This document shows positions 25,066 through 56,124 of a DNA stretch of 64,000 nucleotides, piece by piece. The notes under the pieces are model-generated. The model had not been told where the DNA came from. It saw only the letters and a program-made list of their open reading frames with translations, and made no database searches. Source of the stretch: a bacterium (GTDB taxonomy: Bacteria > Patescibacteriota > Microgenomatia > Levybacterales > UBA12049). How positions within the stretch are numbered: the first letter of the stretch is position 1; each line of letters opens with the position of its first letter. The position numbers were made by a program, and so were the translations under genes. Location: the NCBI GenBank assembly GCA_021824155.1, contig JAKALN010000001.1, forward strand, positions 15 through 64,014, in the 5' to 3' direction.

Positions 25066-25072
25066 GAGGTCT

Positions 25073-27373: not shown

Positions 27374-27396
27374 AATGAAAAGATTATAACACTTAT

Positions 27397-29083: not shown

Positions 29084-29114
29084 ATGTTTGGATTATAACA
29101 AATGAATAAAAACG

Positions 29115-29492: not shown

Positions 29493-29513
29493 ATTTTTAT
29501 TATACTAATTAAA

Positions 29514-30197: not shown

Positions 30198-30259
30198 GAT
30201 TGGATTATATCACTTTGCCGTCTTGACAAAGTTATCAGTATATTTAAAAATAAAATCAG

Positions 30260-41500: not shown

Positions 41501-41981
41501 TACCCGTAACGTTGTCCTGAAGAGCCGTAAAGAAAACTCCCGGGCTTCTTACCAGCTGGTTTACAACTGCTCTTTCTATTCCGTTTACAATAAAGGTCCC
41601 TCTTTCCGTCATCTGGGGAATATCTCCCAAGAATACTTCCTGGTCTATTGTTGAATTTGTTTTTTTATTTATTAAAGTTGCGTTTACGTAAAGGGGGGCG
41701 TCGTAGGTTAAACCTTTGGAAAGAGCAATGTCGGGGGTATTGCTTATCTTTCCAAGCCTGTAATCTTTAAGGACAAGACTCCAGTTTTTTTCCGTAAAAT
41801 CATCGATAGGGGAAATTTCCTGAAGGACCTGGGAAATACCTTTTTCCAAAAACCACTGATATGACTGTTTTTGAATAGCAAGTAAATCAAGTTGCGGTAA
41901 AAGAGAATGGGTTTTACCCCAGTTCTTTCTTGTTACGGTAATGTTATCCTTATTGTCTTTCTTGTCGGTATTTTTAGGCAT
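38514..41981 (-). CDS. rpoB: DNA-directed RNA polymerase subunit beta, acidic C-terminal tail
   Basis: Conserved beta blocks; 1155 aa; 8-nt overlap with rpoC. Confidence 0.95.
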
Positions 41982-42082
41982 TAGTAATTAGAATTCAAGT
42001 AGGATTTATCGTAGGGCACACAACACCAAAAAAAAGGCGCAAGAGTCTTATCCTTGTAAATCCTTTATATATAAAGTGTTGT

Positions 42083-42112
42083 TTTTATACCATACATAAT
42101 TATGGGGTGTCA
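42083..42112 (-). promoter_or_regulatory. Candidate sigma70-like promoter for rpoB-rpoC (TTGACA-N18-TATAAA with TGn)
   Basis: Read on the minus strand: TTGACAccccataattatgtaTGgTATAAA, about 100 nt upstream of the rpoB ATG. Confidence 0.3.
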
Positions 42113-42127
42113 AGGGGGAATTTTATT

Positions 42128-42240
42128 TGAGGATGGACACTGGAAACTGGAAGTTCGACCTTGAAGCTGGAAAATAGAAATTGGAAATCTAACTTCCATC
42201 ATCGAACTTCAAATTCTAACTTCTATCATCTATTGTCTAC
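42128..42240. repeat. Palindromic TGGAA/TTCCA pentamer-repeat element, intact copy A
   Basis: The left arm has four GGAA/TGGAA repeats and the right arm has three ACTTC repeats, ending in TGTCTAC. Related copies lie at 54225, 52573/53011 and 45562. Confidence 0.6.
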
Positions 42241-42256
42241 CATCAACTAATGAACT

Positions 42257-43000
42257 TTATAAACTGGTGAATTCCAGCATTAGCGGTGAATGGTCGGAAA
42301 CAACATCCGGCAAAACTTTAAAATCCAAAACTTTAACGCCGTTAGATACCAATATATAATCCGCAAACAAATCCCCCATATCATACCTGTCGTAAAGTTT
42401 TGTCCTTGTAGAAGTTACTTTATATTCTTTAACAAGATTTCTTAAATTTTCTTCCAATATCAACAGGCTTTTCGTATCCGGCAACAAATTAAAATCCCCA
42501 GCCAGAATTTTTGCGCCTTTTTGTTTGTCTAAAAATTCTTTTACTTTTTTAGACTGTTCAAGCCTTTCCGGCGTATCGCCTTTTCCCTCTCTTATCCAAA
42601 GGCCGTGCATATGGGAAACAATAATGTCTTTTCCGTTTAGTTTAAACTTTATAAACTGAAGATTTCTTCCCTGGGTTGAGGGATCATTGTCTATCATTGC
42701 GTCCTGAAAGCGGTAAATGAAAAAATCCCCCTCCTCTTCTATATTTATAGTATTTTTAACAAATATAGAAAGACCCATGTTTTCCTGTCTTTTAAAAAAT
42801 CCTTTATGTCGGGGCAATAAATTTTCTATTATCGAATAAACATTTGGGACAGCATCCTGAAAAGTAACAGGATTTTTTCTTCCGTTAAATACTTCCTGGA
42901 AGCAAAAGACATCGGTGTCTTTATTTTCCGATATAAATTTTTTTAAAGGTTCTAAAATTTGTCCGCCCCAAATGTTTAAGGTTATTAATTTCACAAACAA
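42257..43000 (-). CDS. Endonuclease/exonuclease/phosphatase (EEP) family protein
   Basis: LNIWGG near the N-terminus and SDHSPL near the C-terminus. Confidence 0.7.
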   Translation of the reverse strand: MFVKLITLNIWGGQILEPLKKFISENKDTDVFCFQEVFNGRKNPVTFQDAVPNVYSIIENLLPRHKGFFKRQENMGLSIFVKNTINIEEEGDFFIYRFQDAMIDNDPSTQGRNLQFIKFKLNGKDIIVSHMHGLWIREGKGDTPERLEQSKKVKEFLDKQKGAKILAGDFNLLPDTKSLLILEENLRNLVKEYKVTSTRTKLYDRYDMGDLFADYILVSNGVKVLDFKVLPDVVSDHSPLMLEFTSL

Positions 43001-43044
43001 AATTATATCACGGAAAAAATTCTTAAAAGATCTATAATTAAAAT

Positions 43045-43620
43045 ATGGATATTCTTACAGTTTTAATTCTGCTTGCCCTTTTTATTTACATTATTAATGT
43101 AATTCCGTTTCTTATGCCTCCGACCTGGACTATTCTTGCCTTTTTTTACATAAATTACCATCCGCCTTTTATCCCGGTAATTGTCTTAGGAGCGGGGGCA
43201 GCAACTCTGGGAAGAATTACGCTTTATTATCTTTCCAAAAGATATTTCAGAAGGTTCTTCTCCCAAAAATCCCTTAAGAATTATGACGTTTTGGGAAAAT
43301 TTGTTACAAAAAATGAAAAGTTTTCCATTCCGATTTTTATTACCTATGCTTTTTTCCCTATTTCTTCAAACTATGTTTATATTGCGGCGGGACTTGCAAA
43401 AATAAACATAAAAATTCTTGCGTCTTCGTTTTTTGTGGGAAGGCTTATAAGTTATTCTTTTTGGGTTGCCGCTTCACATTATGCTGTTAGCAGAGTTGAA
43501 GATATTTTTACAAGCCATATAAATAATATCGGAGTAATAGCGGTAGAGCTGATAGGATTTATTATTGTTATTTTAATAGGAAAAATAAACTGGGGGAAAA
43601 TTTTAAAAATCCCGGCCTGA
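43045..43620 (+). CDS. DedA/VTT-family membrane protein
   Basis: PFLMPPTWTILAFFY ... LGAGAATLGRITLYYLSK. Confidence 0.65.
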   Translation: MDILTVLILLALFIYIINVIPFLMPPTWTILAFFYINYHPPFIPVIVLGAGAATLGRITLYYLSKRYFRRFFSQKSLKNYDVLGKFVTKNEKFSIPIFITYAFFPISSNYVYIAAGLAKINIKILASSFFVGRLISYSFWVAASHYAVSRVEDIFTSHINNIGVIAVELIGFIIVILIGKINWGKILKIPA

Positions 43621-43643
43621 AAAACAGGATTAAAAAGGTAAAG

Positions 43644-43970
43644 TTAAAGTTTTCCTGTTAATAAAGCCCTAAGGGGAGAAAGAACAACTGGAGTTTTTCG
43701 GGCTTCCCTTTGTTCTAAAACGGTGTCCGGTTTTAAGGATACTGCCGGCTCGCTGTCAAAACTGCTTATTTGGGCTTCCAAAGAAGCTATCATTCTTCTG
43801 TCTTCAATTGTAAGTCCTCCAAAAGCCGCCTGCTGTTTTAAATCTTCCAATCTTGCCATAGCGGCGTCACGTGATGCTGTTGGAGCTAGCGGTGTATGGG
43901 TTATATTTGCGTCGGGGGCGGGCACAGATTTTCCCTGCGCTTCAAGCGTACGTCTTAAAAATTCTCCCAT
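43644..43970 (-). CDS. Hypothetical protein (108 aa), GC-elevated
   Basis: ORF; no family recognised. Confidence 0.4.
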   Translation of the reverse strand: MGEFLRRTLEAQGKSVPAPDANITHTPLAPTASRDAAMARLEDLKQQAAFGGLTIEDRRMIASLEAQISSFDSEPAVSLKPDTVLEQREARKTPVVLSPLRALLTGKL

Positions 43971-44002
43971 GTCTTAGAATTTAATACTATATCAATCTTT
44001 TG

Positions 44003-44368
44003 TCAAGAAGCTTTTGCTCTACTATTTAAAAAATCCGTACTCACCTTAATTACCGCCTGCGCTCTTTGTGCAGTCACTTTATCGCGGTCCGATTTTTTCT
44101 CTTTTGCCAAAACATAATCCGAAACTTCCGTTGCCAAATCTTTTATAAGCCCAATCCTTTCAAGACCGGGCAAGCCGGAAACGGAAGCAAAAGAAACAGC
44201 ACCGGCCAAAACTCCTCTTTTTGCATACCATTTTGCCTCCGAAATAACGTCAAAACCGTCTTTTGCAAAAGTTTTTGCAATAAACATCCATTCCGTGCCT
44301 TCGGCTATTGCAACCAAATTTCCCATAACGGTTTCGGGAGTTTCATGCCTTGTGCCTTTCTCTGTCAT
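44003..44368 (-). CDS. Hypothetical protein (121 aa), GC-elevated
   Basis: ORF 32 nt upstream of the previous gene; no family recognised. Confidence 0.4.
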   Translation of the reverse strand: MTEKGTRHETPETVMGNLVAIAEGTEWMFIAKTFAKDGFDVISEAKWYAKRGVLAGAVSFASVSGLPGLERIGLIKDLATEVSDYVLAKEKKSDRDKVTAQRAQAVIKVSTDFLNSRAKAS

Positions 44369-44473
44369 AACAAGGAGGAATTATAGCACTAATTAAATTA
44401 AAGATTAAAGATTTATGGTTTATGAAGAAAAAACCAAGAAGTCAAAGCGAGGCTTTTTATAGTTCTATAATTA

Positions 44474-44482
44474 TGGTATAAT
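44474..44482 (+). promoter_or_regulatory. Extended -10 element TGgTATAAT 6 nt upstream of the small ORF ATG (possible leaderless transcript)
   Basis: Exact match to the nonamer found upstream of ispH, the Fic operon and alaS. Confidence 0.35.
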
Positions 44483-44488
44483 TTTGCC

Positions 44489-44614
44489 ATGAATAAGAAA
44501 AGCATAAAGTTCCTAAAAGAAAATAAATCTAGTAAAAAAAGAGAGATTAAACAATATACTAAAGAAGCTGTTTCTTTGTACGAAAAAACTCTTCGTAAAT
44601 TGGCCTATACCTAA
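44489..44614 (+). CDS. Small ORF (41 aa) abutting the Doc toxin start, candidate antitoxin
   Basis: Hand translation gives MNKKSIKFLKENKSSKKREIKQYTKEAVSLYEKTLRKLAYT. Its stop TAA is immediately followed by the Doc ATG. Confidence 0.3.
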   Translation: MNKKSIKFLKENKSSKKREIKQYTKEAVSLYEKTLRKLAYT

Positions 44615-45043
44615 ATGGCAAGGGATATTTATTATTTAAACCTCGAAGACATAAAAGAGCTTTGTTTTAATCTTGTAACTGAATTATTACAATTCCAGGA
44701 ACCAATTCCCGAATTTGAAACAAGATTCCCTGCCAAACTTGAATCTGTTCTGGAAACTCCAAGACAAACTTTTGGAGAGGATGAACTCTATCCAACTTTA
44801 TTTGATAAAGCTGCTTGTTATTTTTATTTTATTATCAAAAATCATCCTTTCCTAAATGGTAATAAAAGAATGGCAATTGTAACGACTTATGTTTTCTTAA
44901 AGGTGAACGGCTACATATTTTCAGCCCCATGGAAAATTATGTATTCTTTTGCAATTGAAATGGCAAATTCTTCAGAAGACCATAAAAAAGAATTTAAAAA
45001 AGTATTAACATTCATAAAGAAATACTCTAAAAAGAGTAAATAA
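44615..45043 (+). CDS. doc: Doc (death-on-curing) family toxin, Fic/Doc fold
   Basis: Signature HPFLNGNKR (Doc-type HxFx(D/N)GNKR). Confidence 0.7.
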   Translation: MARDIYYLNLEDIKELCFNLVTELLQFQEPIPEFETRFPAKLESVLETPRQTFGEDELYPTLFDKAACYFYFIIKNHPFLNGNKRMAIVTTYVFLKVNGYIFSAPWKIMYSFAIEMANSSEDHKKEFKKVLTFIKKYSKKSK

Positions 45044-45057
45044 AACCCTGTAGTAAG

Positions 45058-45077
45058 CAGATATACTAGTATATCTG
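45058..45077. repeat. Perfect 20-bp palindrome CAGATATACTAGTATATCTG
   Basis: Read directly; lies 15 nt after the doc stop. Confidence 0.6.
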
Positions 45078-45131
45078 CAATGTATCATGCACTAACCTAT
45101 GATACAGTAACCAGTAAACCAAGAAGTCGAA

Positions 45132-45554
45132 TTAGCTTCCGGAAAAAACTCTTCTTGGGGAAGGGCCCGGAAGATGAAAAATAATTTCATGGACTCTGAT
45201 ACTTTTGCCATCTTCCGAAGGTCCGGAAACTAAAACCGTGGCAGCATCTTGCGGTATTAATTGCGTTTTTCCTCCCGGAACAAATTCTCTTTTTCCCGAT
45301 GAATTATTAAAATATCCAACATTACTATCTTTGGGAAGAGCCCTATAAATGGCAGTTCCGTCTTCTTTAACAAGCAAATTATGCCTGTGAGTATTTCTTG
45401 TCCAGGAGGCAGGAGTTAAATCGTATTCTCCTTCGGGAAGAGGTACGACCCTTTCCATATTCCTTATTATAGTTTCTATTGCCCACTTCTGCGGGTCCCG
45501 CTTTGTAAATTCAAAAGGAATACCGCCTTCAAAATGTAACCGTTCGATAGTCAT
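45132..45554 (-). CDS. Hypothetical protein (140 aa)
   Basis: ORF; no family recognised. Confidence 0.4.
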   Translation of the reverse strand: MTIERLHFEGGIPFEFTKRDPQKWAIETIIRNMERVVPLPEGEYDLTPASWTRNTHRHNLLVKEDGTAIYRALPKDSNVGYFNNSSGKREFVPGGKTQLIPQDAATVLVSGPSEDGKSIRVHEIIFHLPGPSPRRVFSGS

Positions 45555-45561
45555 TTCAGTC

Positions 45562-45593
45562 CGATAGTATAGAAGTTAGAGTTTAAGAAGTCA
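45562..45593. repeat. Fragment D of the pentamer-repeat element, inverted orientation
   Basis: GTATAGAAGTTAGAGTTTAAGAAGTC resembles the reverse complement of the right arm of copies A and C. Confidence 0.35.
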
Positions 45594-45619
45594 AATTAAA
45601 ATTTGCAATTATATTTTAA

Positions 45620-45654
45620 ATATTACAATAATAAAAGCAGGGGTAAACCCCTGC
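45620..45654 (-). terminator. Rho-independent terminator (GCAGGGG-TAAA-CCCCTGC followed by a T-run on the minus strand)
   Basis: 7-bp GC stem plus TTTTATTATT, directly after the stop of the 59-aa ORF. Confidence 0.55.
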
Positions 45655-45662
45655 CAGACGAC

Positions 45663-45842
45663 TTATTTTTTACGCTCATGAGGCGTTCGCTCAACGAGAG
45701 TAAATTGTTGTCGTACTCCTACCGGATTCGGTGGGACTTTTTTACCTTCAACGAAGGTAAATTCGTCACTCCCTCCAGAGGGTCTATAAATACCTGAAAC
45801 AGGTACTTCTTCACCCGTATGGACTACTACTTTTTTAGTCAT
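45663..45842 (-). CDS. Small protein (59 aa), not in the ORF track
   Basis: Hand translation gives MTKKVVVHTGEEVPVSGIYRPSGGSDEFTFVEGKKVPPNPVGVRQQFTLVERTPHERKK. GAAAGGAGG RBS 6 nt upstream; terminator downstream. Confidence 0.45.
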   Translation of the reverse strand: MTKKVVVHTGEEVPVSGIYRPSGGSDEFTFVEGKKVPPNPVGVRQQFTLVERTPHERKK

Positions 45843-45985
45843 ATCAACCTCCTTTCTCGCTTTAAAGCGTGAGTTTAGAGAATTAAATCTCTTTTGAGCG
45901 CTAGCAATTGAAAAGAGGTTAGCAAGAGGTTTATCCCCTGTAGTAATATTTTACCGTAAGGATTCGGGGGTTTGCAAGGGATATT

Positions 45986-48514
45986 TTAAGAATTTTCTAC
46001 AATTTTTATTTCTTCTGGAGTTAAATCGTAAAGCTTGTAAACTTCTCCATCAATTTTTTTATCAGTTTTATCTATTTCTTCTTTTATTGAATTCCATTTA
46101 TTTGATCCTTCGGGAAAACTGAATAGTTCCTTATTCAACTTCAACATTTTACTGACAGGGTCCTCAAAAATCTTAATTTTTTGTTTTTCGTTAGGATAAA
46201 TTATTGGAATTTCCCTTAACTGTTCTATTCTAATTTTTGGGAAAATTTTAGTGTCTGGGGAAATGTAGGTTTTAAAATAAAATCTATAAAGCTTAGAGTT
46301 TAAAATTGCTAATACAAATAATAAAGAAGAATTATTTGTTGTTTTAAGATTATACAAACTTCTTGTGGTTATAACTCCTTCCTCCTCATAAGAAGCAATT
46401 ATTGAATCTCCTGTTTCTCTTACAATTATTTTTGGAGGAGAAAAAATATTATTTGTTTTTTGATATTTATCAAAGGTTTCGCTGTTGATATAACCAGAGG
46501 ATTTTATAACATATCTACCTATATCTCTTCCTGAAAAGCACTTAATTTTTCCTTCACTTTTTATTTTATCTTGTCCGATCTCAAGACCCCTTCGAATAAT
46601 ACTTAAAGCCCCCAATTTTACCATTTGATGCCTACGAAAAATATCTATTTTACTTTCAAAAAAATCTTTATTAGATTCATTTTGTTGTTTAGTTAAATTT
46701 AAAATACAAGTTGGCATATTTACGTTAGCAAAAACTCTATCGCCCATTTCTTTTAAAGTCACTTCTTTTGAATTTTCATTAATATATTTTCTTAGAGGTT
46801 GATACTCTAAACCTTTTAAGAATAAACTAGGAATAATGAACCCTAAATTCCCAAATGTTTTTAAATTATTAATAGACATTTCGATAAAAATCGAAAACAG
46901 ATCAAAATAACCTGAAGCTAAAATATATTTGTTTTTGAAAAAATTTACGTCCTCTTTCTTTAAAGAATACATATTTACGTAAGGCGGATTTCCTATTACC
47001 ACATCGAAGCCTCCTTGTTGAAAAATTTTTGGAAATTGTTCTTTAAAGTTAAAAGGTTTTTTCTTTCTGAAGTCTTTACCGAAATATTTTTCTAATTCTT
47101 TATCTGTTCCTGAAATTAAAGAATTCCCGTTTTTTATATTACTATTCAATGAAGGCAATTCTCCTTTTTCTCTCAATGTGTTTATCAATAGATTTAGTTT
47201 TGCAATTTCAACAGCTTGTTCATCTAAATCAACTCCAAAAATATTATCTAAGAGAATTTGTTTTCTTAAATTTTCATCGTCCTCATAATTAAATTCTATG
47301 TATTTTTCAACAATTACCTCCAAGGCTTTTACTAAAAAAGAACCTGAGCCGCATGCTGGATCTAATACTTTAATTTTTTTTAAATCATTAACGCTAACGC
47401 ATTTATCTAAAACTGGTTTTAGGGCATTTCTTACAATGTAATCAACTATAAAAGCAGGCGTATAATAAATACCTTGTTCTTTCCTTTTTCCCGCAGCTTT
47501 ATCTAAGCTTAAACCTTTTTGCGATTGAGATAATTTATATCCTAAATAATTCTCATATACACTACCTAGAATATCAGCCGGAATGACTTTAAAGTCATAT
47601 TCATTATAGCCCTCAGTTCCATATAAAATTTTTATGACCTTCTTTGTAGAATCTCCATAGTCTACCCAATTTTCAAAAGGATGTGGGGAAAAAAGATTAG
47701 AGTTATATACTTTATCAAGCTCTCTAAATTTTGAAATCATAAAAGCATAAAGGGGCTTTTTTCTATCACTATTTTCCCAAGATCTTAAAAGTGGAATTAG
47801 CGTTGAAGGTTCAATACCTCTATCCTCCGCAACTCTAATAAAAATTAATCTATCTAAAAGTCTTTGAACTCCTTCATCTAATAATTCCTTATCTATTCCC
47901 TCATTCATGACATTTAAATCATTTGTTAATATTTCTCTGCATTTATTAAAATCTTTGTACAATGAATCCGTAATCGGAGATTTTATAATTTTTTTGCCAA
48001 CTCTTTCTGCTTCTTTATCTAGAAGGTTATTTAAAAAAGAATCCTTCGACAAAAGCCAGAGTTGTTCGAATCTCTCTAAATATTCATCATAATTAATACT
48101 AAAAAATAATTTATCTCCTAAGTACTTTGACGCTGCTTTTGCATTAAAAACCTTCAGTCCCTCAAAATCAGTTAAAATTGCCCATGTAACATCTCTATTC
48201 CAAGAGTATCTAATTGCTTGCCTTGCATATTCTTCCTGATTTAAATCGGCTTTTAATGGCTTTGCTTCAATATAAAGCTTAGCTCTCCCATTTATATAAA
48301 GCCCAAAATCAACTCGACCTGATGATAAAATACTTTCTTCAGCTGAAACCTCCTCCTTATTTGAGAAATCCCAACCCAATACTTCAAATAGTGGTTTTAT
48401 AAAAGCATTTTTTGTTTCTTCTTCTGTGTAGCTCTTGATTTTCCCAGAGGTTTTCACTTGCTCGTATTTAGCAATTAATTTCTTAACTTCTTCTTTAGCT
48501 TGTTCCTTATTCAT
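45986..48514 (-). CDS. Type IIG restriction-modification enzyme (MmeI-like: N-terminal PD-ExK nuclease, gamma-class N6-adenine MTase, C-terminal TRD)
   Basis: D-x13-EAK near the N-terminus. MTase motif I VLDPACGSGSFL and motif IV VIGNPPYV. 842 aa. Confidence 0.75.
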   Translation of the reverse strand: MNKEQAKEEVKKLIAKYEQVKTSGKIKSYTEEETKNAFIKPLFEVLGWDFSNKEEVSAEESILSSGRVDFGLYINGRAKLYIEAKPLKADLNQEEYARQAIRYSWNRDVTWAILTDFEGLKVFNAKAASKYLGDKLFFSINYDEYLERFEQLWLLSKDSFLNNLLDKEAERVGKKIIKSPITDSLYKDFNKCREILTNDLNVMNEGIDKELLDEGVQRLLDRLIFIRVAEDRGIEPSTLIPLLRSWENSDRKKPLYAFMISKFRELDKVYNSNLFSPHPFENWVDYGDSTKKVIKILYGTEGYNEYDFKVIPADILGSVYENYLGYKLSQSQKGLSLDKAAGKRKEQGIYYTPAFIVDYIVRNALKPVLDKCVSVNDLKKIKVLDPACGSGSFLVKALEVIVEKYIEFNYEDDENLRKQILLDNIFGVDLDEQAVEIAKLNLLINTLREKGELPSLNSNIKNGNSLISGTDKELEKYFGKDFRKKKPFNFKEQFPKIFQQGGFDVVIGNPPYVNMYSLKKEDVNFFKNKYILASGYFDLFSIFIEMSINNLKTFGNLGFIIPSLFLKGLEYQPLRKYINENSKEVTLKEMGDRVFANVNMPTCILNLTKQQNESNKDFFESKIDIFRRHQMVKLGALSIIRRGLEIGQDKIKSEGKIKCFSGRDIGRYVIKSSGYINSETFDKYQKTNNIFSPPKIIVRETGDSIIASYEEEGVITTRSLYNLKTTNNSSLLFVLAILNSKLYRFYFKTYISPDTKIFPKIRIEQLREIPIIYPNEKQKIKIFEDPVSKMLKLNKELFSFPEGSNKWNSIKEEIDKTDKKIDGEVYKLYDLTPEEIKIVENS

Positions 48515-48620
48515 TTAAAGCCTATAGGTGGATAATAGCACTTTATGGTTCGACTTTCTAGCTCAACATCGTCCTTTTTACCTACATCCTATTTTTTTCT
48601 ATGCCACTTTCCATTAATCT

Positions 48621-48896
48621 TTATACCTTTACTCCTTTTTCCAATTCTTTTATTTTTCGTTCCATTTTTTTCATCCGTTTTTCCGCAATTTGCATTTCTT
48701 TATAAAGAAAAATAATAAAAGCACCAGACAAAGTTAAGAAAAATATTTGAAAAGAAAAATTACCTCTAACAAAAAGGTCGTAAATTATATTTCCGGTAAT
48801 ACCGAATAATAAACCAAAAAACAAGGCAAGAATAAATAAGCCCGTGTTTCTTTCCTTTTCTCTTATTTCTTTAAGTTCAGATTTTAAGGCTTTCAT
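48621..48896 (-). CDS. Small membrane protein (1-2 TM plus C-terminal coiled coil), last gene of the Ubl-E2-JAB-E1 operon
   Basis: Hydrophobic core then Lys/Glu-rich helix. 1-nt gap from the E1 gene. Confidence 0.4.
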   Translation of the reverse strand: MKALKSELKEIREKERNTGLFILALFFGLLFGITGNIIYDLFVRGNFSFQIFFLTLSGAFIIFLYKEMQIAEKRMKKMERKIKELEKGVKV

Positions 48897-48897
48897 A

Positions 48898-49758
48898 TTA
48901 TCTTAGGATTTTATCAATTCCATTTTTGGGGTAACGTTCAATATCTGCTTTATCTCCATTTCCTAATACAGTTTTGCAATAGTAACAATCCTGAATTGGA
49001 TCTATATTTTTGGTTAAAATACTTAAATCTCCTCTATAGGTGAGGTATTTATTTACTTTTCTAATACTAGTAACTGCTGATATGAATTCTGAAACAGCTA
49101 TTGAAGCTATAGTACCATTTAATGAAACTACAGCTGGACCCGTATTTTTTATTACTTCTTTTGGAATTCCATATATGTTATCCTCTGCTGAGCGGTCCGC
49201 AGGGGTTGATAAATCTCTTCTAATTTCCTCTGAAGATAACAAGCCTCTACAGAATAAGCAACCAGGCTCAGAGTTTGAAAAAACTACTCTTCCGCCCCAA
49301 TCATCCTTTGAGATTTGAGAGGCTAGATCAAAATAATTTATTTTATAAGCTTTTGAAAATTCAGTTAAAACTAATCTAGCTCCGTCCTTATCTACGCATC
49401 CAAAAATGTAATTTACACGTTTTAATGCTTTTATACTAATTTCCGAAATAAAGCTGTCTCCAACACTATAGACAGACATATCTTCTGATATAAATTTTAG
49501 GTTTCTTTCTGCAATATTAACCTTTAAGTTATTTATGTCTTTTTCATTAGCACCTATCAACCTATTTAGATTTGTTTTGCTTACTATATCAGCATCAATT
49601 AAAACAAAATCCTTAACCCCCAAATACGCTAATTGTTGAGCAACATGAGATCCAATTCCGCCTAAGCCAACAATAGCTACTCTTGTTTTTTCAATTTCCA
49701 TCTGACCTTTTATGCCAACCCATAATATATTTCTGTTATATTTATTGTTCTCATCCAT
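48898..49758 (-). CDS. E1-like ubiquitin-activating enzyme (ThiF/MoeB fold)
   Basis: VAIVGLGGIGSHVAQQL Rossmann/ATP motif; paired CxxC (CLFCRG ... CYYCK). Confidence 0.75.
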   Translation of the reverse strand: MDENNKYNRNILWVGIKGQMEIEKTRVAIVGLGGIGSHVAQQLAYLGVKDFVLIDADIVSKTNLNRLIGANEKDINNLKVNIAERNLKFISEDMSVYSVGDSFISEISIKALKRVNYIFGCVDKDGARLVLTEFSKAYKINYFDLASQISKDDWGGRVVFSNSEPGCLFCRGLLSSEEIRRDLSTPADRSAEDNIYGIPKEVIKNTGPAVVSLNGTIASIAVSEFISAVTSIRKVNKYLTYRGDLSILTKNIDPIQDCYYCKTVLGNGDKADIERYPKNGIDKILR

Positions 49759-50257
49759 ATTTTTTTTGAAAGGAAATATTTGTAGGTTTTAAAAATTTTT
49801 TGTTTACGATGATTGAATTTAACCTAACCGAAGTATTGCCATCTTTCAACCACACTTTGGCGTCAAAATCGCTTCGTCCAAAAACAAGTGCAATATAAGG
49901 TTTTTTTTCTAATCTCCAGAAAATATAAGGTACAAATTCTGCCAGCTCAGACAAATCAAATTCAGAGAACGTAGTATTGGAAAAAGAAAACGGATGTGAA
50001 TGAATTTCACAAAGGGAAAAATTTTTCAAAAAAGCTTTTTTTATTATTTTGGAAATTATTTCATCCTTTGTTTCTAAATAATACCTATCCTCATTGTCAT
50101 CAATATATATAAAATCTCCGACCTCAAAAATTAAAGACGTAGTGTTTTCTGAGTAAGTCAAGAACAAAAAAATATTTTGTTCAAATCTACTCTCATCCAA
50201 AAATTTTTTGATTTTTAAGAAGTCTTTTTTTTTAAATTTGAGAAATATACTTTTCAT
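49751..50257 (-). CDS. JAB/MPN (JAMM-like) metallopeptidase
   Basis: EIHSHPFSFSNTTFSEFD gives HxH...SxxD. Confidence 0.6.
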   Translation of the reverse strand: MKSIFLKFKKKDFLKIKKFLDESRFEQNIFLFLTYSENTTSLIFEVGDFIYIDDNEDRYYLETKDEIISKIIKKAFLKNFSLCEIHSHPFSFSNTTFSEFDLSELAEFVPYIFWRLEKKPYIALVFGRSDFDAKVWLKDGNTSVRLNSIIVNKKFLKPTNISFQKKYG

Positions 50258-50646
50258 GATTCCTCCTTAAATCTTTCTTTAAAACTTCTAACGAAGTTTA
50301 GTAGATTGCTTCCTGAATTTATATCTGAAGTTGGTTTCCAAGAGTTATCTTGAACCCAGGAAAATTTCCCCCATTCGTTTCCAAAAGGTGTAGATACCGG
50401 CTCGGTATAACTTCCTGGGATGGACTGTTCATTTGCTTTTATTCTTATTCCCCTTGGAACATAAAAAGCATAAGGAGGCTCTCCGGGATATCCAATCGGA
50501 ATTTGGAAACATATATTCACAATATCCCTATTCCAAGCATTACTAGAAATTTTAAAATTGTTAATAAAAATCCAGCCATCTTTATACTCGAGATCGCCAA
50601 ATTCTTTTTTTAGAATTTCTAATTCTTTTTTAATTCTTTCATTCAT
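50254..50646 (-). CDS. Putative E2-like (UBC-fold) protein
   Basis: Assigned from operon context (between the Ubl and JAB genes) and YPGEPPYAFYVP; no clear HPN motif. Confidence 0.4.
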   Translation of the reverse strand: MNERIKKELEILKKEFGDLEYKDGWIFINNFKISSNAWNRDIVNICFQIPIGYPGEPPYAFYVPRGIRIKANEQSIPGSYTEPVSTPFGNEWGKFSWVQDNSWKPTSDINSGSNLLNFVRSFKERFKEES

Positions 50647-50882
50647 CCTCTTTTATATTGAACTTTTTTTCCATACCTATGACCGGGTTTAAGAGTAACA
50701 ATGTCATCTTCCGCAAGAGTTTTCTCATTTCCCTGAGGATCTATTTCAATTACTGGTTGTTCGGAGGGTAATCCTCCCAAACTTCTTATTTCTGGGACAG
50801 TAATAGTTTCCTTATCCCAAGGATACTCAGTTCCCTCAATTTCAATAAAATATTTTGGCCCGTTTCCCATTTTTCTTTTCAC
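50643..50882 (-). CDS. Putative ubiquitin-like (beta-grasp) protein, 79 aa, ends in Gly
   Basis: First gene of the operon; AGGAGGTG RBS 8 nt upstream; C-terminal ...YKRG. Confidence 0.35.
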   Translation of the reverse strand: MKRKMGNGPKYFIEIEGTEYPWDKETITVPEIRSLGGLPSEQPVIEIDPQGNEKTLAEDDIVTLKPGHRYGKKVQYKRG

Positions 50883-50979
50883 CTCCTTTTTACTACTTGA
50901 ATTTTTGTAAAAAGTGTTGTATTATTTTTACAACAATAGAATTAAAAAGTCAAGCAATAAGATCTGATATAATCATGCT

Positions 50980-51333
50980 ATGAAAACTTTTGGCAAACTA
51001 CTCAGAGAAAAAAGAATTGCACTTGGCTTCACTCTCCGTACATTTTGTGGAAGATTTGGGTACGACCCAGCTTATATTAGTAGGCTGGAAAGAAATTTAA
51101 TGCCTGCTCCTGAAAGCAAGGAAAAAATTGAGGCATTGGCTAATGCTCTATCCATAGAAAAAAATAGCCCAGATTGGGTTGAATTTTTTGACCTAGCTTA
51201 CTTGTCGAAAGGAAAAATCCCTGAAGATATTGGCAAAAATGATCATCTCCCACTCTTATTTCGAACTATCAGAGGAAAGAGGCTTTCTAAACAACAACTT
51301 GAAAAGCTAGTAAAGCTTCTAAATGAATCATGA
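50980..51333 (+). CDS. XRE-family HTH transcriptional regulator
   Basis: HTH (LRTFCGRFGYDPAYISRLERN); divergent from the Ubl operon. Confidence 0.7.
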   Translation: MKTFGKLLREKRIALGFTLRTFCGRFGYDPAYISRLERNLMPAPESKEKIEALANALSIEKNSPDWVEFFDLAYLSKGKIPEDIGKNDHLPLLFRTIRGKRLSKQQLEKLVKLLNES

Positions 51334-51923
51334 GCTTTACTACAAAACCTATCTCTTATAGAAAGATAGGAGAATTAGCAGAGGATTTTCTATCAAAATA
51401 TCATCCTTCTTTTTCTCTCTCTGTACCCATCGAAGAAATTGCAGAATCTAAACTTGATATTCAAATTGTTCCCGTTGTTGGAATAAAAAAGGATTATGAC
51501 ATGGATGCATCTCTCTGCTCTAATTTCAATACAATTTTCATTGACTATAACTTTTATATGAATCGTGAAAATAGAAGTAGATTTACAATTGCTCATGAGA
51601 TTGGCCATCTTATCTTACATAAAGATTTGTTCGAGTCTCTTAAAATCTTTAATATAGAGGATTTATTTAAAATTTCAGAGTCAATAAGTGATAACGAGTA
51701 TAGATGGATGGAATATCAAGCTTATTCTTTTGCAGGCCATGTATTAGTTCCAAAAAAACTACTAATTGACGAAATAAAGAAAAAGTTGGGTAGAGTACCA
51801 AGCGAAGAAAATCCTGAGTCTCTTTATCCTGTAATTCAAGATCTTTCTGACATCTTTAAGGTCTCTGAGGATGTCATACTTAGACGACTTCAAAAAGAAA
51901 AAATGGTAAAGAGCAATCATTAA
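51330..51923 (+). CDS. ImmA/IrrE family metallopeptidase
   Basis: HEIGHLILH (HExxH), with a 4-nt overlap with the HTH gene. Confidence 0.75.
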   Translation: MSFTTKPISYRKIGELAEDFLSKYHPSFSLSVPIEEIAESKLDIQIVPVVGIKKDYDMDASLCSNFNTIFIDYNFYMNRENRSRFTIAHEIGHLILHKDLFESLKIFNIEDLFKISESISDNEYRWMEYQAYSFAGHVLVPKKLLIDEIKKKLGRVPSEENPESLYPVIQDLSDIFKVSEDVILRRLQKEKMVKSNH

Positions 51924-51924
51924 C

Positions 51925-52548
51925 CTAATGATTGAGTTCTATTCCCGAAGCATCATTGATGGAAAGAGTTTCACTGCAACTGTTGAAACTTCCCGTAACC
52001 AAAACCGAAGTATTATTAAAAGGAACGAGGTTTATGTTTTCGTTAAATGGAATATTTAAAGTCGTTCCGTCGGTCTTTACCAAAATTGTCCTGTTGATAA
52101 TTTTCGATGAACTATGAACCATAAGAATTGTGTCGATGAGCGAAAGCGGACCATTATATATTTCCCTGTAATTTAAAACTTTTATTGTTCCTATGTGGGT
52201 TTGCACACCTTTATCGCAGATTACCCGGTTTCCTCCAAAAAGTCCGAAAACCGAAAGGACTAAAATAACCCCTGCAATTCCCAAACTGCCTTTAAGTGTA
52301 AAAGAAAAAGCTTTTTGGTTTTTTATTTCCTCCAAAAGCTCTATTACACGTCTTAGCGGATTTCCGATTCTAATATCAAGGAGGTCTTCCTGATCTTTGT
52401 AATTGCCGGTGTGGCTGGCAAGGAAAGTAGACAGTGGATCGTGGAGGTTAGAAAGACCGGGAACTTTAATAAAGTGACCTTTCTCGTCGCGGGGACGAGA
52501 AGATGCAACTTCTCCTTTGAGTTTATCTTTGGCTTGAGCACTAGCCAT
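51925..52548 (-). CDS. Hypothetical single-TM protein (207 aa)
   Basis: ORF with one hydrophobic helix (GIAGVILVLSVFGLFG). Confidence 0.4.
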   Translation of the reverse strand: MASAQAKDKLKGEVASSRPRDEKGHFIKVPGLSNLHDPLSTFLASHTGNYKDQEDLLDIRIGNPLRRVIELLEEIKNQKAFSFTLKGSLGIAGVILVLSVFGLFGGNRVICDKGVQTHIGTIKVLNYREIYNGPLSLIDTILMVHSSSKIINRTILVKTDGTTLNIPFNENINLVPFNNTSVLVTGSFNSCSETLSINDASGIELNH

Positions 52549-52572
52549 ACCTTAAATATAACATAAACTTTT

Positions 52573-52636
52573 GATGGTGGACAATGGAAACTGGAAGCTA
52601 GAACTTGAAGCTTGATGATAGAAGGTAGATAATAAG
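52573..52636. repeat. Left half (B) of the pentamer-repeat element
   Basis: GATGGTGGACAATGGAAACTGGAAGCTAGAACTTGAAGCTTGATGATAGAAGG matches the left arm of copies A and C. Confidence 0.5.
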
Positions 52637-52641
52637 TTAAA

Positions 52642-53004
52642 GTGATTAAAACCTTTCGTGATTTAGAGGTTTACAACGAATCCTACTCCTTAATGATTCT
52701 TGCTCACAAATTAGCAAAAACTCTTCCCGTCTATGAACGTAATGATTTGGCTTCTCAAATAAGAAGAGCTTCAAAATCTTGTCCTGCTAATATTGCAGAG
52801 GGTTGGGCTAAAAGGAGATTTGAAAAAGAATTTAAACACCATTTGGATAGCGCAATCGGTTCAGCAAACGAAATGGAAGTACATATAGAAACCGCAAGAG
52901 ACTTGGGATATTTACAAGAAAATTTTTCAAACGATATTCTGGTTCGATACCAAAAACTAGGCGGGAAATTAAGAAATCTGCAAAGAAACTGGAAAACATA
53001 CTAA
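52642..53004 (+). CDS. Four-helix-bundle protein (23S rRNA intervening-sequence protein family), GTG start
   Basis: 120 aa with the typical family length and helical pattern. Confidence 0.65.
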   Translation: MIKTFRDLEVYNESYSLMILAHKLAKTLPVYERNDLASQIRRASKSCPANIAEGWAKRRFEKEFKHHLDSAIGSANEMEVHIETARDLGYLQENFSNDILVRYQKLGGKLRNLQRNWKTY

Positions 53005-53010
53005 TCAAAT

Positions 53011-53057
53011 GTCTATCCTCTAACCTCGAAATCCAACTTCTATCTTCCACCGTCTAC
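53011..53057. repeat. Right half (B') of the pentamer-repeat element
   Basis: CTAACCTCGAAATCCAACTTCTATCTTCCACCGTCTAC matches the right arm of copies A and C. Confidence 0.45.
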
Positions 53058-53076
53058 ATTCAAATTATGCTCCGCA

Positions 53077-53085
53077 TGGTATAAT
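53077..53085 (+). promoter_or_regulatory. Extended -10 element TGgTATAAT upstream of the 53092 gene
   Basis: Exact nonamer 7 nt before the ATG. Confidence 0.4.
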
Positions 53086-53091
53086 TAGCGC

Positions 53092-53412
53092 ATGGCAGAA
53101 GGACTGGAAGCCCATATTACACCGGATGAGGCTTTTTGGAAAAAACCTCCAATACCTGAAAAAGAAAAGCCTTTAAATTTAAAAGAAAAGGCTTTTTATC
53201 TTGCATTGGACTCCTTTCCCGAAGCAACCCAAAACCTTATAGCCTCTTTATCCACAAGTTTTTTAGAAGCAGACGTTTATAACGAATTTAAAAACAGCAA
53301 AGGAAGCATCAGTTCTTTAAGAAAGAGGTTAAAAGGCCAAGGTTTAATGCAGGAGCAAGTAGAGCTTGTTCTTGATTTTTTCAAGCTGCCTTACGAAAGT
53401 CCAAAAAGATGA
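53092..53412 (+). CDS. Hypothetical protein (106 aa), partner of Fic
   Basis: 4-nt overlap with the downstream Fic gene. Confidence 0.45.
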   Translation: MAEGLEAHITPDEAFWKKPPIPEKEKPLNLKEKAFYLALDSFPEATQNLIASLSTSFLEADVYNEFKNSKGSISSLRKRLKGQGLMQEQVELVLDFFKLPYESPKR

Positions 53413-54134
53413 GTCCAGATAAGCCATCCCACCAGCTGCAAGAATTAGGAAACGAATTTAAATGCCAGAAATTGGTTAATCAATGGCTTGGCGACCATAT
53501 CCCAAGCAGCCAAATTATTCCCCATCTGCATAAACAGCTTATGGACGGAAGTGACGACTACGCAAAAAAAGGGATATTACCAGTACCGCCCGGAGTTTAC
53601 AGGAATATAGACGTTGCAACCGACGGGGAACCTGCAAATTACTACGCATTTGGCCTTGACGTTGCCCCCGCTATGGGAAAATATACCAAAGACCTTGATA
53701 ATTTACTCCGAAACTTACCAAGAAACCCTATTGGAAATATTGATTCTATAGTAGAAAACGCCGCAAGATATTATTACGCTTTTGAAAGAATACATCCTTT
53801 CCTGGACGGAAACGGAAGAATTGGAAGAATGATTTTAAAAAGGATATTAAGGGGCGCCGGCCTAAAAGATTTGGTTTTTAGGTCCGATTTGGGCAAAGGA
53901 AGAAACGCTCATCTGGACGCAATAAAAGCGGTAAACAGATCGGGAAACATTGCATACATAGAAATTTATCTGTTAGACCAGATCGGCTTAAGGTATATGG
54001 GAGAAAGGGACGAAAATTTTTCCCTCGAAATCCAAAGAGCCCGCCGGAAAAAAACCGATAACATACAAAACCAGAAATACCCTTATCCCGTAACTGATAT
54101 TTGGGAAGGGTTTAAAGGTTTAGACATCGCATAA
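53409..54134 (+). CDS. fic: Fic family protein (AMPylase-type)
   Basis: Canonical HPFLDGNGRIGR. Confidence 0.8.
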   Translation: MSPDKPSHQLQELGNEFKCQKLVNQWLGDHIPSSQIIPHLHKQLMDGSDDYAKKGILPVPPGVYRNIDVATDGEPANYYAFGLDVAPAMGKYTKDLDNLLRNLPRNPIGNIDSIVENAARYYYAFERIHPFLDGNGRIGRMILKRILRGAGLKDLVFRSDLGKGRNAHLDAIKAVNRSGNIAYIEIYLLDQIGLRYMGERDENFSLEIQRARRKKTDNIQNQKYPYPVTDIWEGFKGLDIA

Positions 54135-54204
54135 ATTATATACAAGAAATTTGATGATAGACCAAACTTCTAACTTCAAATAAATCAAATCGGGCTTTGG
54201 AATC

Positions 54205-54213
54205 TGGTATAAT
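54205..54213 (+). promoter_or_regulatory. Extended -10 element TGgTATAAT upstream of alaS
   Basis: Exact nonamer; element C lies between it and the alaS ATG. Confidence 0.4.
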
Positions 54214-54224
54214 GAGTATTAATT

Positions 54225-54335
54225 GAGGATGGACAGTGGAAGCTAGAAACTGGACCTTGATGTTAGAAGATGGAGGCTTGAATCTGACTTCTAACTTCCA
54301 ACTTCTATATCTAACTTCAAGCATCTACTGTCTAC
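54225..54335. repeat. Palindromic TGGAA/TTCCA pentamer-repeat element, intact copy C
   Basis: GAGGATGGACAGTGGAAGCTAGAAACTGGACC...CTTCTAACTTCCAACTTCTATATCTAACTTCAAGCATCTACTGTCTAC. Confidence 0.6.
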
Positions 54336-54351
54336 TCTCAAAATATTTTCG

Positions 54352-56124
54352 ATGAATATAAAAGAGATTATTGATGTTTATATAAGTTTTTTTGAAAAAC
54401 GCGGGCATAAGAGAATTGCAAATTCTCCGCTTGTCCCGGAAAACGACCCTACTACCCTTTTTACATCATCGGGTATGCAGCCTTTAATCCCATATCTTTT
54501 GGGAGAAAAACACCCCCAAGGAGACAGGCTTGTTGACGTACAAAATTGTTTTAGGGCAGTTGATATAGACGAAGTTGGTGATAATCGTCACACAACTTTT
54601 TTCAGGATGCTTGGAAATTGGAGTCTGGGAAGTTATTTTAAAAAAGAGGAAATCCCAATGCTTTGGGAATTTTTAACTAAAGAACTAAACCTTCCCAAAG
54701 AAAAACTTTATATAACAGTATTTGCCGGAGACGGAGGGGTTGGAAAAGATAACGAAGCTTTTGAAATTTGGAAAACGCTTGTTCCCGAAAATAAAATTTT
54801 CTTTGCGGGAGTTGATAAAAATTGGTGGTCTAGAAGCGGAGTGCCGGATAATATGCCCGTAGGCGAACCTGGCGGGCCCGATACCGAAGTTTATTACAGA
54901 TTTGACGATTTAAAACATAACTCTGAGTGCAAAGATAACCCCGTTGAATGCGAATGCGGAAAGTTTTTGGAAATCGCAAACTCTGTTTTTATGCAGTATC
55001 TAAAAACAGAAGAAGGATTTAAGGAATTACCCCAGAAAAACGTAGATTTTGGAGGAGGAGTCGAAAGACTTTTGGCAGCAGTTGAAGACAAACCGGATAT
55101 CTTCCAAACCTCCCTGCTCTATCCCGTTATAAAAACTATTGAAAAACAAACGGGAGCTTCTTATGGAATTAAGAATTATGAATTAAGAATTATGACCGAC
55201 CATTTGGTTGCGGGAGTTTTTATTTCAAGCGCAAACGTTAAGCCTTCAAACAAAGAAAGAGGATATATTTTAAGAAGGTTGCTTAGAAGAAGCTTTGATA
55301 ACTTATACAAACTTAAAACTGAAAACTTAGAACCTATAATTGAAACAATAGTCCAGCAATATAAAGATACGGATCCGTATTTGATAAATAATTTTGAGGA
55401 AATTAAATTTACAATTTTGGAGGAAGAAAAAAATTATAAAGGAACACTTTCGCGGGCAAAAACTTTTATCGACAAAAAATATCCCGGAAAAGAAGCGGAA
55501 GGCGTTAAAGAAATTTCCGCCGAAGATGCTTTCCTTTTGTATTCAACCCACGGACTTTCCCCAACCCAAATAAGAAGTTTGGGGTACGTTTTTAAGGAAG
55601 AAGATTTTGCGGTTTTAATGGAAGAGCACCAAAAATTATCAAGACTTGGTGCTTCACAAAAATTCAGGGGAGGGCTTGCGGATACAAATGAGCGGACAAT
55701 AATGGGACATACGGCAACCCACCTTTTACATAAAGCCTTAAGGGATATGTTTGGAGACCAACTTCACCAGACAGGAAGCAATATTACAACAGAGAGGCTA
55801 AGGTTTGATTTTAATTTTGACAGAAAATTAACCGGGGAAGAAATAGAAAAATTGGAAGATGTTGTTAACGGAAAAATAAAGGAAAACCTTCCGGTGCATT
55901 TTGAAATAATGCCGTTAAAAAGGGCAAAAGAACTGGGGGCAATAGGCCTTTTTGACGAAAAGTACGAAAATGACGTAAAAGTTTATTTTGTAGGCGATTA
56001 TTCAAAAGAGTTTTGCGGAGGCCCGCATGTAGATTTTACATCGAAGCTAAAAAGGTTTAAGATAATAAAACAGGAAAATATAGGTAACCGCCAAAGAAGA
56101 ATTTATGCGGTGGTCGGCGAATAA
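54352..56124 (+). CDS. alaS: Alanine--tRNA ligase, compact form (catalytic plus editing motifs, no C-Ala domain)
   Basis: FTSSGMQP, RHTTFFRMLGNWSLGSYFK, HTATHLLH and CGGPHV. Confidence 0.8.
   Translation: MNIKEIIDVYISFFEKRGHKRIANSPLVPENDPTTLFTSSGMQPLIPYLLGEKHPQGDRLVDVQNCFRAVDIDEVGDNRHTTFFRMLGNWSLGSYFKKEEIPMLWEFLTKELNLPKEKLYITVFAGDGGVGKDNEAFEIWKTLVPENKIFFAGVDKNWWSRSGVPDNMPVGEPGGPDTEVYYRFDDLKHNSECKDNPVECECGKFLEIANSVFMQYLKTEEGFKELPQKNVDFGGGVERLLAAVEDKPDIFQTSLLYPVIKTIEKQTGASYGIKNYELRIMTDHLVAGVFISSANVKPSNKERGYILRRLLRRSFDNLYKLKTENLEPIIETIVQQYKDTDPYLINNFEEIKFTILEEEKNYKGTLSRAKTFIDKKYPGKEAEGVKEISAEDAFLLYSTHGLSPTQIRSLGYVFKEEDFAVLMEEHQKLSRLGASQKFRGGLADTNERTIMGHTATHLLHKALRDMFGDQLHQTGSNITTERLRFDFNFDRKLTGEEIEKLEDVVNGKIKENLPVHFEIMPLKRAKELGAIGLFDEKYENDVKVYFVGDYSKEFCGGPHVDFTSKLKRFKIIKQENIGNRQRRIYAVVGE

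Follow-up and report, generated by a model that had tools for sequence, protein, structure and literature searches.

An expanded rpoB-alaS spacer as a probable site of accessory-gene turnover in a Levyibacteriota genome

Gene content of the rpoB-alaS interval

The genes rpoB and alaS of a Levyibacteriota genome (Candidate Phyla Radiation, CPR) are separated by an interval of 12,370 bp, positions 41982-54351 of a 64-kb window (the whole stretch of 64,000 nucleotides that was analysed). A first-pass annotation made from the letters alone had described this interval as an accessory and defence island. The genomes of CPR/Patescibacteria are tiny and are generally regarded as poor in defence systems. 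We combined a listing of the open reading frames (ORFs) with Pfam and PADLOC scans of the window proteins, and the gene list, the gene order and the coordinates of the first-pass annotation were all borne out. The flanks and the genes between them are as follows.

38514-41981, minus strand: rpoB, conserved left flank; 1155-aa ORF, 65-87% identical to rpoB of 80 Levyibacteriota species
42257-43000, minus strand: EEP nuclease/phosphatase; Pfam Exo_endo_phos 4.9e-13; TTG start
43045-43620, plus strand: DedA/VTT membrane protein, a weak assignment; Pfam VTT_dom 2.9e-6, 28.2 bits against a cut-off of 33.9 bits
43644-43970, minus strand: hyp108, hypothetical protein of 108 aa; no family match
44003-44368, minus strand: hyp121, hypothetical protein of 121 aa; no family match
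44489-44614, plus strand: 41-aa ORF abutting Doc; no family match
44615-45043, plus strand: Doc toxin; Pfam Fic/DOC 1.4e-15; PADLOC PDC-S23; motif HPFLNGNKR
45132-45554, minus strand: hyp140, hypothetical protein of 140 aa; no family match; its 5' end is the junction between island alleles
45663-45842, minus strand: orf59, 59 aa; weak PHROG match of unknown function, 3.1e-5
45986-48514, minus strand: type IIG restriction-modification (RM) enzyme; PADLOC REase_MTase_IIG 1.6e-109; Pfam Eco57I 1.5e-33, N6_Mtase, TaqI_C, HSDR_N
48621-48896, minus strand: TM91, ORF for a predicted membrane/coiled-coil protein of 91 aa, downstream of E1
48898-49758, minus strand: E1; Pfam ThiF
49751-50257, minus strand: JAB peptidase; intact JAMM motif
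50254-50646, minus strand: E2; Pfam Prok-E2_E
50643-50882, minus strand: ubiquitin-like protein (Ubl); Pfam Multi_ubiq
50980-51333, plus strand: XRE, CapH-like repressor; PADLOC capH 2e-7; Pfam HTH_3
51330-51923, plus strand: ImmA, CapP-like M78 metallopeptidase; PADLOC capP 1.4e-17; Pfam Peptidase_M78; HEIGH motif
51925-52548, minus strand: TM207, hypothetical membrane protein of 207 aa; no family match
52642-53004, plus strand: four-helix-bundle gene; Pfam 23S_rRNA_IVP (PF05635) 2.2e-26
53092-53412, plus strand: 106-aa ORF, overlapping Fic by 4 nt
53409-54134, plus strand: Fic; Pfam Fic 2.5e-14; PADLOC SoFic 2.6e-14; canonical motif HPFLDGNGR
54352-56124, plus strand: alaS, conserved right flank; Pfam tRNA-synt_2c 5.8e-99

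The interval is enriched in defence genes, with PADLOC matches to REase_MTase_IIG, to the E1-E2 models, to capH/capP, to SoFic and to PDC-S23 (Doc). The type IIG ORF is intact, the PADLOC model PDLC03604 covers residues 1-613, and GNPPY is present in the sequence; the single polypeptide is predicted to unite a nuclease, a gamma-class N6-adenine methyltransferase (NPPY) and a TaqI_C-like specificity domain. The Doc motif HPFLNGNKR can be set beside the consensus HxFx(D/N)(A/G)NKR, and the 41-aa ORF that abuts the gene upstream matched neither Phd nor any other family. NCBIfam and PHROGs gave no useful match for eight hypothetical ORFs, and no exact-protein match was found for the product of the EEP gene with its TTG start. 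Searches with Pfam, PADLOC, NCBIfam and PHROGs found no integrase, recombinase, transposase or phage family among the island proteins. There is no tRNA in the island by Rfam, and the sole tRNA of the window lies at 5082-5152. A G+C-rich, terminator-like hairpin is present at 45636-45655, downstream of orf59. Sigma-70-like promoters occur at chance level (46, with 43.4 ± 6.2 expected).

The rpoB neighbourhood in related genomes

The locus was compared with those of the 80 closest species by rpoB (65-87% identity), which are largely labelled Candidatus Levyibacteriota (CPR/Microgenomates), and 10 kb upstream of rpoB were covered. Synteny was read from tblastn of the window proteins onto these rpoB loci; loci and contigs used for comparison carry L numbers. 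The first-pass annotation had placed the island where rplKAJL would be expected, directly upstream of rpoB. This is not the arrangement in the 80 species, where alaS or yceG abuts rpoB in more than 30. With E. coli L11 and L7/L12 as queries, tblastn matched neither the window nor the 10 kb upstream of rpoB in any of 82 loci; an S12 control query matched 67 loci in the same search. As no L11 or L7/L12 gene was found within 10 kb upstream of rpoB in any sampled relative, the rplKAJL expectation does not apply to the phylum. The linkage of rplKAJL to rpoBC is broken in all sampled Levyibacteriota, and its absence here is therefore no evidence of displacement. The island did not displace rplKAJL; the ancestral neighbour of rpoB is a divergent alaS across a short spacer, with yceG taking this place in a deeper clade.

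In the arrangement of the phylum RodZ-p88-p108 comes first, yceG-PYNP-sortase-p794-alaS comes next on the other strand, and rpoB-rpoC comes last. Since the group ending in alaS is opposite in strand to rpoB-rpoC, alaS and rpoB are divergent neighbours. Most of the 80 relatives keep the block alaS-p794-sortase-PYNP-yceG in synteny. In 13 species alaS and rpoB stand 155-440 bp apart, in 21 others the distance is 0.66-5.2 kb, and in several of the closest relatives (L003-L007, L016, L025) it exceeds 10 kb. In the deeper clade the cluster is inverted and yceG abuts rpoB, with a gap of approximately 130-250 bp in all but two species. A metagenome scan with alaS yielded only four close relatives; in the metagenomic relative L093 (rpoB 82%) the gap measures 6.3 kb and contains a methyltransferase-like match.

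Between the same conserved flanks the contents differ among relatives. Only three of the island modules have a counterpart upstream of rpoB elsewhere in the 80 species, and these matches are weak and isolated: the XRE/ImmA pair at 47-49% in L003, EEP at 51% in L004 and Doc at 65% in L006. The ORFs found upstream of rpoB in the relatives are almost all singletons, and the largest cluster has 5 members. A census of 142 such ORFs gave a mixture of accessory and defence families. Pfam identified Zincin_1, methyltransferases, GNAT, NUDIX, GIY-YIG, cupin, rhodanese and Fic, and PADLOC identified scattered type II restriction endonucleases, capP, SoFic, AbiO, and Nhi-like and Cas4-like nucleases. The cargo of the closest relative, L003, comprises GNAT, SNase, Zincin_1, a hydrolase, DUF5615, HEPN, an XRE/ImmA pair, RadC and a Schlafen-like helicase, and L004 carries an RND efflux pump at the site. 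This mixed cargo identifies the site as a general accessory-gene hotspot, which is defence-rich in the present genome.

These comparisons also bear on the idea that the interval is ancestral core context, a local gene set conserved in the lineage. EEP, DedA, the hypotheticals, TM207 and Fic have a core-like codon composition, and homologues of TM207 (44-45%) lie upstream of alaS in two relatives, L091 and L092, as such an origin would lead one to expect. Gene order, however, is kept in 0 of the 80 species, the three isolated matches being all that is shared, the 13 species with a spacer of at most 440 bp have no room for the genes, and sister lineages differ within the island. We regard ancestral context as extremely improbable for the interval. 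It is refuted at the level of the phylum, in agreement with the first-pass view that this is not core context, and could hold for a few genes such as TM207.

Variation among close lineages and support for the assembly

Sequence matching the interval was found in a metagenome-assembled genome (MAG) at NCBI (GCA_027348085.1, contig DAIEQC010000043.1) and in several ENA and Logan assemblies. Content variation, seen above between species, was observed directly between co-occurring close lineages as well. Two differences define it.

45600-45620, no strand: left breakpoint between allele A and allele B; L173 is 99.9% identical up to 45620 and unrelated beyond
44431-45128, plus strand: Doc cassette, 685-bp indel; 13-nt direct repeat AAACCAAGAAGTC at 44431-44443 and 45116-45128

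Two contigs, L180 and L181, contain allele B in full, and five others, two NCBI MAGs among them, carry it too. The genes run in the order hyp121 (96.8% nucleotide identity), hyp140 (91.7%), DUF4406, DUF3892, LexA, Vsr, two copies of Dcm, an HNH_2 endonuclease and NERD. Allele B rejoins the window sequence at the Fic module (85% nucleotide identity) in inverted orientation. The allele-B genes are all missing from the 64-kb window and from the rpoB loci of the 80 relatives. Contigs L188-L190 from Logan end just past orf59, facing the junction at 45.6 kb. The Doc cassette is absent from the lineage-B contigs L181, L185 and L186, which have a single copy of AAACCAAGAAGTC in its place. Close strains therefore differ both by the Doc indel and by the alleles to the right of 45.6 kb.

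Contig L173 combines a left flank of the window type with the allele-B cassette, and the switch falls in a 59-nt stretch, at the hyp140 start, that is identical in both lineages. Because this stretch is shorter than the assembler k-mer of 141, a real recombinant is a more likely origin of L173 than a chimera, and L173 is likely to be a recombinant between island alleles. Allele A (L178) and the L173 form co-occur in sample ERZ27237563.

The LexA gene within the sister-lineage island (L181 1896-2477) is of a typical CPR kind and has the Vsr-Dcm-Dcm-HNH restriction system and the NERD gene as neighbours. Neither the 64-kb window nor the surroundings of rpoB in the 80 relatives showed a LexA gene.

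The same contigs allow an assembly or binning artefact, in which foreign contigs were joined to rpoB and alaS, to be judged. Contig DAIEQC010000043.1 starts at 41903, inside rpoB, the ENA contig L177 stops at 41925, a number of contig breaks fall near 45.6 kb, and all of the data are MAGs, which is what an artefact could produce. The rpoB ORF is nevertheless continuous over 41903 and its N-terminus aligns with those of the relatives from residue 1. The independent ENA contig L173 spans rpoC-rpoB-EEP through hyp140 at 99.9% identity and confirms the junction between rpoB and the island, while L177 and L178 span from alaS to EEP or hyp140 at 99-100% identity. Contig breaks at polymorphic junctions are also to be expected where strains are mixed. 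An artefact is consequently a highly improbable account of the interval. At least two independent assemblies break at the 5' end of rpoB, within its first approximately 80 nt, and the coding sequence is unbroken across 41903-41925, which suggests strain heterogeneity or a repeat at this point.

Composition, and hairpins at the island edges

The G+C content at third codon positions (GC3) of 16 core genes ranges from 0.29 to 0.42. Within the island, Doc and the genes from orf59 through ImmA are lower (0.20-0.27), in line with a GC of 0.27-0.32 over 46-51 kb. The individual values are listed below.

Doc: 0.23
orf59: 0.25
Type IIG RM enzyme: 0.20
TM91: 0.23
E1: 0.21
JAB: 0.26
E2: 0.25
Ubl: 0.23
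XRE: 0.27
ImmA: 0.24

Core-like values were obtained for EEP (0.34), DedA, three hypotheticals, TM207 and Fic; hyp140, which lies between Doc and orf59, is one such gene at 0.31. The first-pass annotation had called hyp108 and hyp121 GC-elevated. Their codon positions 1 and 2 are indeed high, the proteins being rich in Ala and Gly, but their GC3 of 0.32-0.34 is core-like. GC skew tracks the coding strand and is uninformative on acquisition.

A palindromic element had been noted at both edges of the island. It forms a stable hairpin, of which we found the following copies (MFE, minimum free energy).

42127-42252, plus strand: copy 1, between the EEP stop codon and the rpoB upstream region; MFE -36.3 kcal/mol, z -4.9
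52571-53069, plus strand: copy 2, split around the PF05635 gene; arms 52571-52629 and 52989-53069, homologous to copies 1 and 3
54223-54347, plus strand: copy 3, ending 4 nt before the alaS start codon; MFE -46.3 kcal/mol, z -6.7
L001 20901-21024: copy 4, between ftsK and the RNase J gene, approximately 11 kb beyond alaS

Shuffling the sequence 100 times produced 0 matches to the search pattern, copy 1 was recovered by nhmmer with an E-value of 1e-35, and for the arm-arm duplex of copy 2 the energy was -44 to -58 kcal/mol, compared with -25 to -32 in shuffled sequences. The element is present at both edges, as first noted, but it does not mark a boundary, with one copy inside the island and another past alaS. 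No copy was detected by the nhmmer model in the loci of the 80 relatives, and so the hairpin is a dispersed repeat specific to this genome.

Composition and hairpins also bear on the idea of a single integrative element (an integrative and conjugative element, an integrative and mobilizable element or a prophage remnant) that would have brought in all 12 kb with the edge hairpins as attL and attR. The hairpins at 42127 and 54223 share the same orientation and part of the interior looks foreign in GC3, both of which agree with such an element. The two edge copies, however, are only approximately 75-77% identical, further copies lie within the island and beyond alaS, and the island holds no integrase, recombinase, transposase, tRNA or phage gene. 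The composition is moreover that of a mosaic, and sub-blocks vary independently, as seen in the Doc indel and in the allele switch at 45.6 kb. A single integrative element is in our judgement very unlikely. Inverted hairpin remnants that would flank or invert 45.6-54.14 kb were also searched for and rejected as not significant (score 21; shuffles 17.3 ± 2.9, maximum 28).

In copy 2, the PF05635 gene sits in the loop of a stem of approximately 60 bp that is homologous to the three hairpins without an ORF that are dispersed in the genome, and a homologue in L049 is likewise bracketed by an inverted repeat. Intervening sequences in 23S rRNA genes of Leptospira and Coxiella encode a four-helix-bundle protein of this family. 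The present element shares with them a PF05635 ORF within a long, stable stem of flanking inverted repeats; unlike them, it is intergenic in an island and has miniature, ORF-less stem copies elsewhere in the genome. No rRNA was found in the window by Rfam. The gene and the hairpins resemble an autonomous element with miniature derivatives, situated outside any rRNA gene. With copy 3, the alaS leader would hold a stem of approximately 125 nt and leave no room for a conventional Shine-Dalgarno spacer. A role of the hairpin in RNA processing, insulation or translation is possible.

An unfused Ubl-E2-JAB-E1 operon with a CapH/CapP-like pair

The Ubl operon (48898-50882, minus strand) is made up of four separate ORFs with successive overlaps of 4-8 nt. 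A PDB sequence search connected three of its products to the bacterial Bub proteins. Citrobacter BubB was the sole match of E2 (2.4e-5), the E1 domain of BubCD was the top match of E1 (4.2e-15), and the peptidase domain of BubCD was the top match of JAB (residues 11-106 of BubCD; 7.8e-7). E2, E1 and the peptidase are thus homologous to BubB, BubD and BubC. In E2, Ser96 is invariant and Cys46 is approximately 90% conserved, and the window protein has no His. E1 is a protein of 286 aa with a single ThiF domain and two CxxC motifs; its invariant Tyr196-Gly197 aligns within 2 residues of Y370 of BubCD. The JAMM motif of JAB is intact, and Ubl ends in KRG.

The E2 belongs to a family of stand-alone Prok-E2_E proteins of approximately 130 aa, for which 23 metagenomic protein clusters were found and no member in the viral contig collection. 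The same unfused, colinear cassette, 33-60% identical, is present on metagenomic contigs L083-L089. Its neighbours there include pairs of helix-turn-helix (HTH) and metallopeptidase genes, an Eco57I/SNF2 gene pair, a Dam-type methylase and SbcCD-like genes, with the HTH and metallopeptidase pair adjoining the cassette in L083-85 and L088-89. TM91 is not kept beside the homologous cassettes elsewhere and is no conserved partner of the Ubl cassette. DUF6527/PF20137 (BubE) gave no match in any island ORF and is not listed in the precomputed Pfam annotation beside the homologous cassettes.

Two Bub types have been described: Type I has BubAB and BubCD fusions together with BubE/DUF6527, and Type II has an E2-E1 fusion together with BubE (PMC11601596). 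We took Type I, class 6E.1 / DUF6527, from Ye et al. 2024 (PMC11601596) for comparison. The cassette shares with it the domain order Ubl, E2, JAB, E1, an E2 of Pfam Prok-E2_E with an invariant Ser, an E1 with one adenylation domain, no CYS domain and an invariant Tyr, and an adjacent CapH and CapP pair. It differs in having four separate genes and no BubAB or BubCD fusion, both here and in L083-L089, and in missing DUF6527/BubE here. Its Ubl is one small domain that ends directly in Gly, and its E2 lacks a Ser-x-His pair and has the nearly invariant Cys46. The cassette is also like Type I and Type II Bil (BilABCD) in its four separate genes, in the order Ubl-E2-JAB-E1 and in its defence-island setting. 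Bil was nevertheless ruled out by the single adenylation domain of E1, which at 286 aa has one ThiF domain and not IAD-AAD-CYS, and the E2 is of the Prok-E2_E family with no His. Judged by sequence, we file the Ubl cassette as one that would work like Bub and that belongs to neither described type. An unfused Bub-like operon of this kind broadens the known architectures of bacterial ubiquitin-like conjugation and offers small, separately encoded proteins for biochemistry.

The XRE and ImmA genes overlap each other, and 97 bp (50883-50979) separate them from the divergent Ubl gene. An XRE-HTH gene and a gene for an M78 metallopeptidase (HExxH), adjacent to and divergent from the operon that they regulate, are the arrangement of CapH/CapP; the assignment made here is by PADLOC profile matches. 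A CapH and CapP pair accompanies 31% of Bub operons (PMC11601596). CapH/CapP are described as DNA-damage-responsive regulators of CBASS and of other defence operons (Lau et al. 2022, cited in PMC11601603). An XRE/ImmA (CapH/CapP-like) pair is also found upstream of rpoB in L003 (3119-5044), where its neighbours are an ORF of 67 aa and a gene for a HEPN-domain protein. The hotspot may thus reuse this kind of regulator pair for different effectors.

Interpretation of the interval

Taken together, the evidence makes it quite probable that 41982-54351 is an expanded spacer between alaS and rpoB, a site of recurrent accessory-gene turnover in Levyibacteriota, and that it holds a mosaic of separately acquired modules. 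The low-GC3 run from Doc to ImmA (44.6-51.9 kb) would comprise the Doc cassette, orf59, the type IIG enzyme and the Bub-like operon with the CapH/CapP pair. EEP, DedA, the hypotheticals, the TM protein and the Fic module would be older or locally derived genes. Three hairpin copies, one of them bearing the gene for the 23S-rRNA-IVS protein, belong to this mosaic. Gain, loss and replacement could proceed by homologous recombination via the conserved flanks rpoB and alaS, and also via small internal anchor genes such as hyp140 and the Fic module; insertion and deletion bounded by short repeats would contribute, as for the Doc cassette. A dedicated integrase is probably not involved. The first-pass reading as a defence island stands in so far as the interval is acquired, variable and not core context. 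It does not stand for approximately half of the genes, which are not recognisable as defence genes, nor for the placement relative to rplKAJL.

By homology, functions can be proposed for the defence modules. The type IIG enzyme would methylate its own sites and cut unmodified incoming DNA. CapH would repress the divergent Ubl operon until it is cleaved by CapP after DNA damage or infection. E1 would then adenylate the C-terminal Gly of Ubl and pass Ubl to E2, probably via Tyr and Ser oxyester intermediates, for conjugation to targets, and the JAB peptidase may trim or remove Ubl. Doc, as a kinase, and Fic, as an AMP transferase, would act as toxin modules that are restrained by the small upstream ORFs.

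A number of observations weigh against reading the interval as such a site. Approximately half of the island ORFs (EEP, DedA, the hypotheticals, the TM protein and the IVP element) are without a recognisable defence identity, and most genes at the site in relatives are small metabolic or accessory enzymes and not known defence genes. The compositional deviation is confined to part of the island. In L003-L007, with alaS beyond 10 kb, the upstream regions may be the product of rearrangement rather than of expansion at this site. The sequences used for comparison all come from metagenome assemblies, and L173 could in principle be a chimera. Allele B may either replace allele A or adjoin an inverted copy of it. 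Finally, no mobility gene or att-like site accounts for the arrival of the modules, and we can therefore only infer recombination as the mechanism.

Defence islands and accessory hotspots flanked by conserved core genes are an established general concept. The present site is like the known core-flanked hotspots in its fixed flanks and variable content, in its clustering of RM, toxin-antitoxin and candidate defence operons, in its partly deviant composition and in its strain-level cassette polymorphism. It is unlike them in having no integrase, tRNA or transposase, in being the divergent promoter spacer of two essential genes (rpoB and alaS) in a CPR phylum, and in the large part of its cargo, here and in relatives, that is not related to defence. 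The island is accordingly a defence-rich accessory hotspot of an already known kind, and the unfused Bub-like cassette is its most novel component. What it adds is a fast-turnover accessory and defence locus within one spacer, beside the most conserved transcription gene, with cassettes that differ between strains of the same study.

We also put forward, tentatively, the joint proposition that the Ubl cassette is an undescribed third Bub (6E) architecture and that the spacer between alaS and rpoB is an integrase-free landing pad. The third architecture may be, to go by the sequence, fully unfused, without BubE, under CapH/CapP control and with a Ser-only E2 site, and is represented by this CPR bacterium and by at least 23 metagenomic protein clusters. 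The landing pad may be one at which co-occurring strains swap cassettes by recombination at internal anchor genes.

Other operon junctions in the window

The str operon is also interrupted in this genome. Approximately 4.3 kb with eight non-ribosomal genes lie between tuf and fusA (26792-31047), among them genes for a PGM-like protein, an HD protein, a GNAT protein and an epimerase, and a 160-aa ORF lies between rpsG and fusA (33223-33705). In the relatives L003-L082 (at approximately 18-23 kb), the rpsG-fusA gap ranges from approximately 10 bp to approximately 4 kb and the fusA-tuf gap is variable as well. In view of these variable gaps, insertion at conserved operon junctions seems to be general in the phylum. 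A G+C-rich unit of 55 nt is present in three tandem copies at 24916-25080, two of them 100% identical and the third 71%; the repeat adjoins the 3' end of rpsJ, between this gene and a 203-aa ORF.

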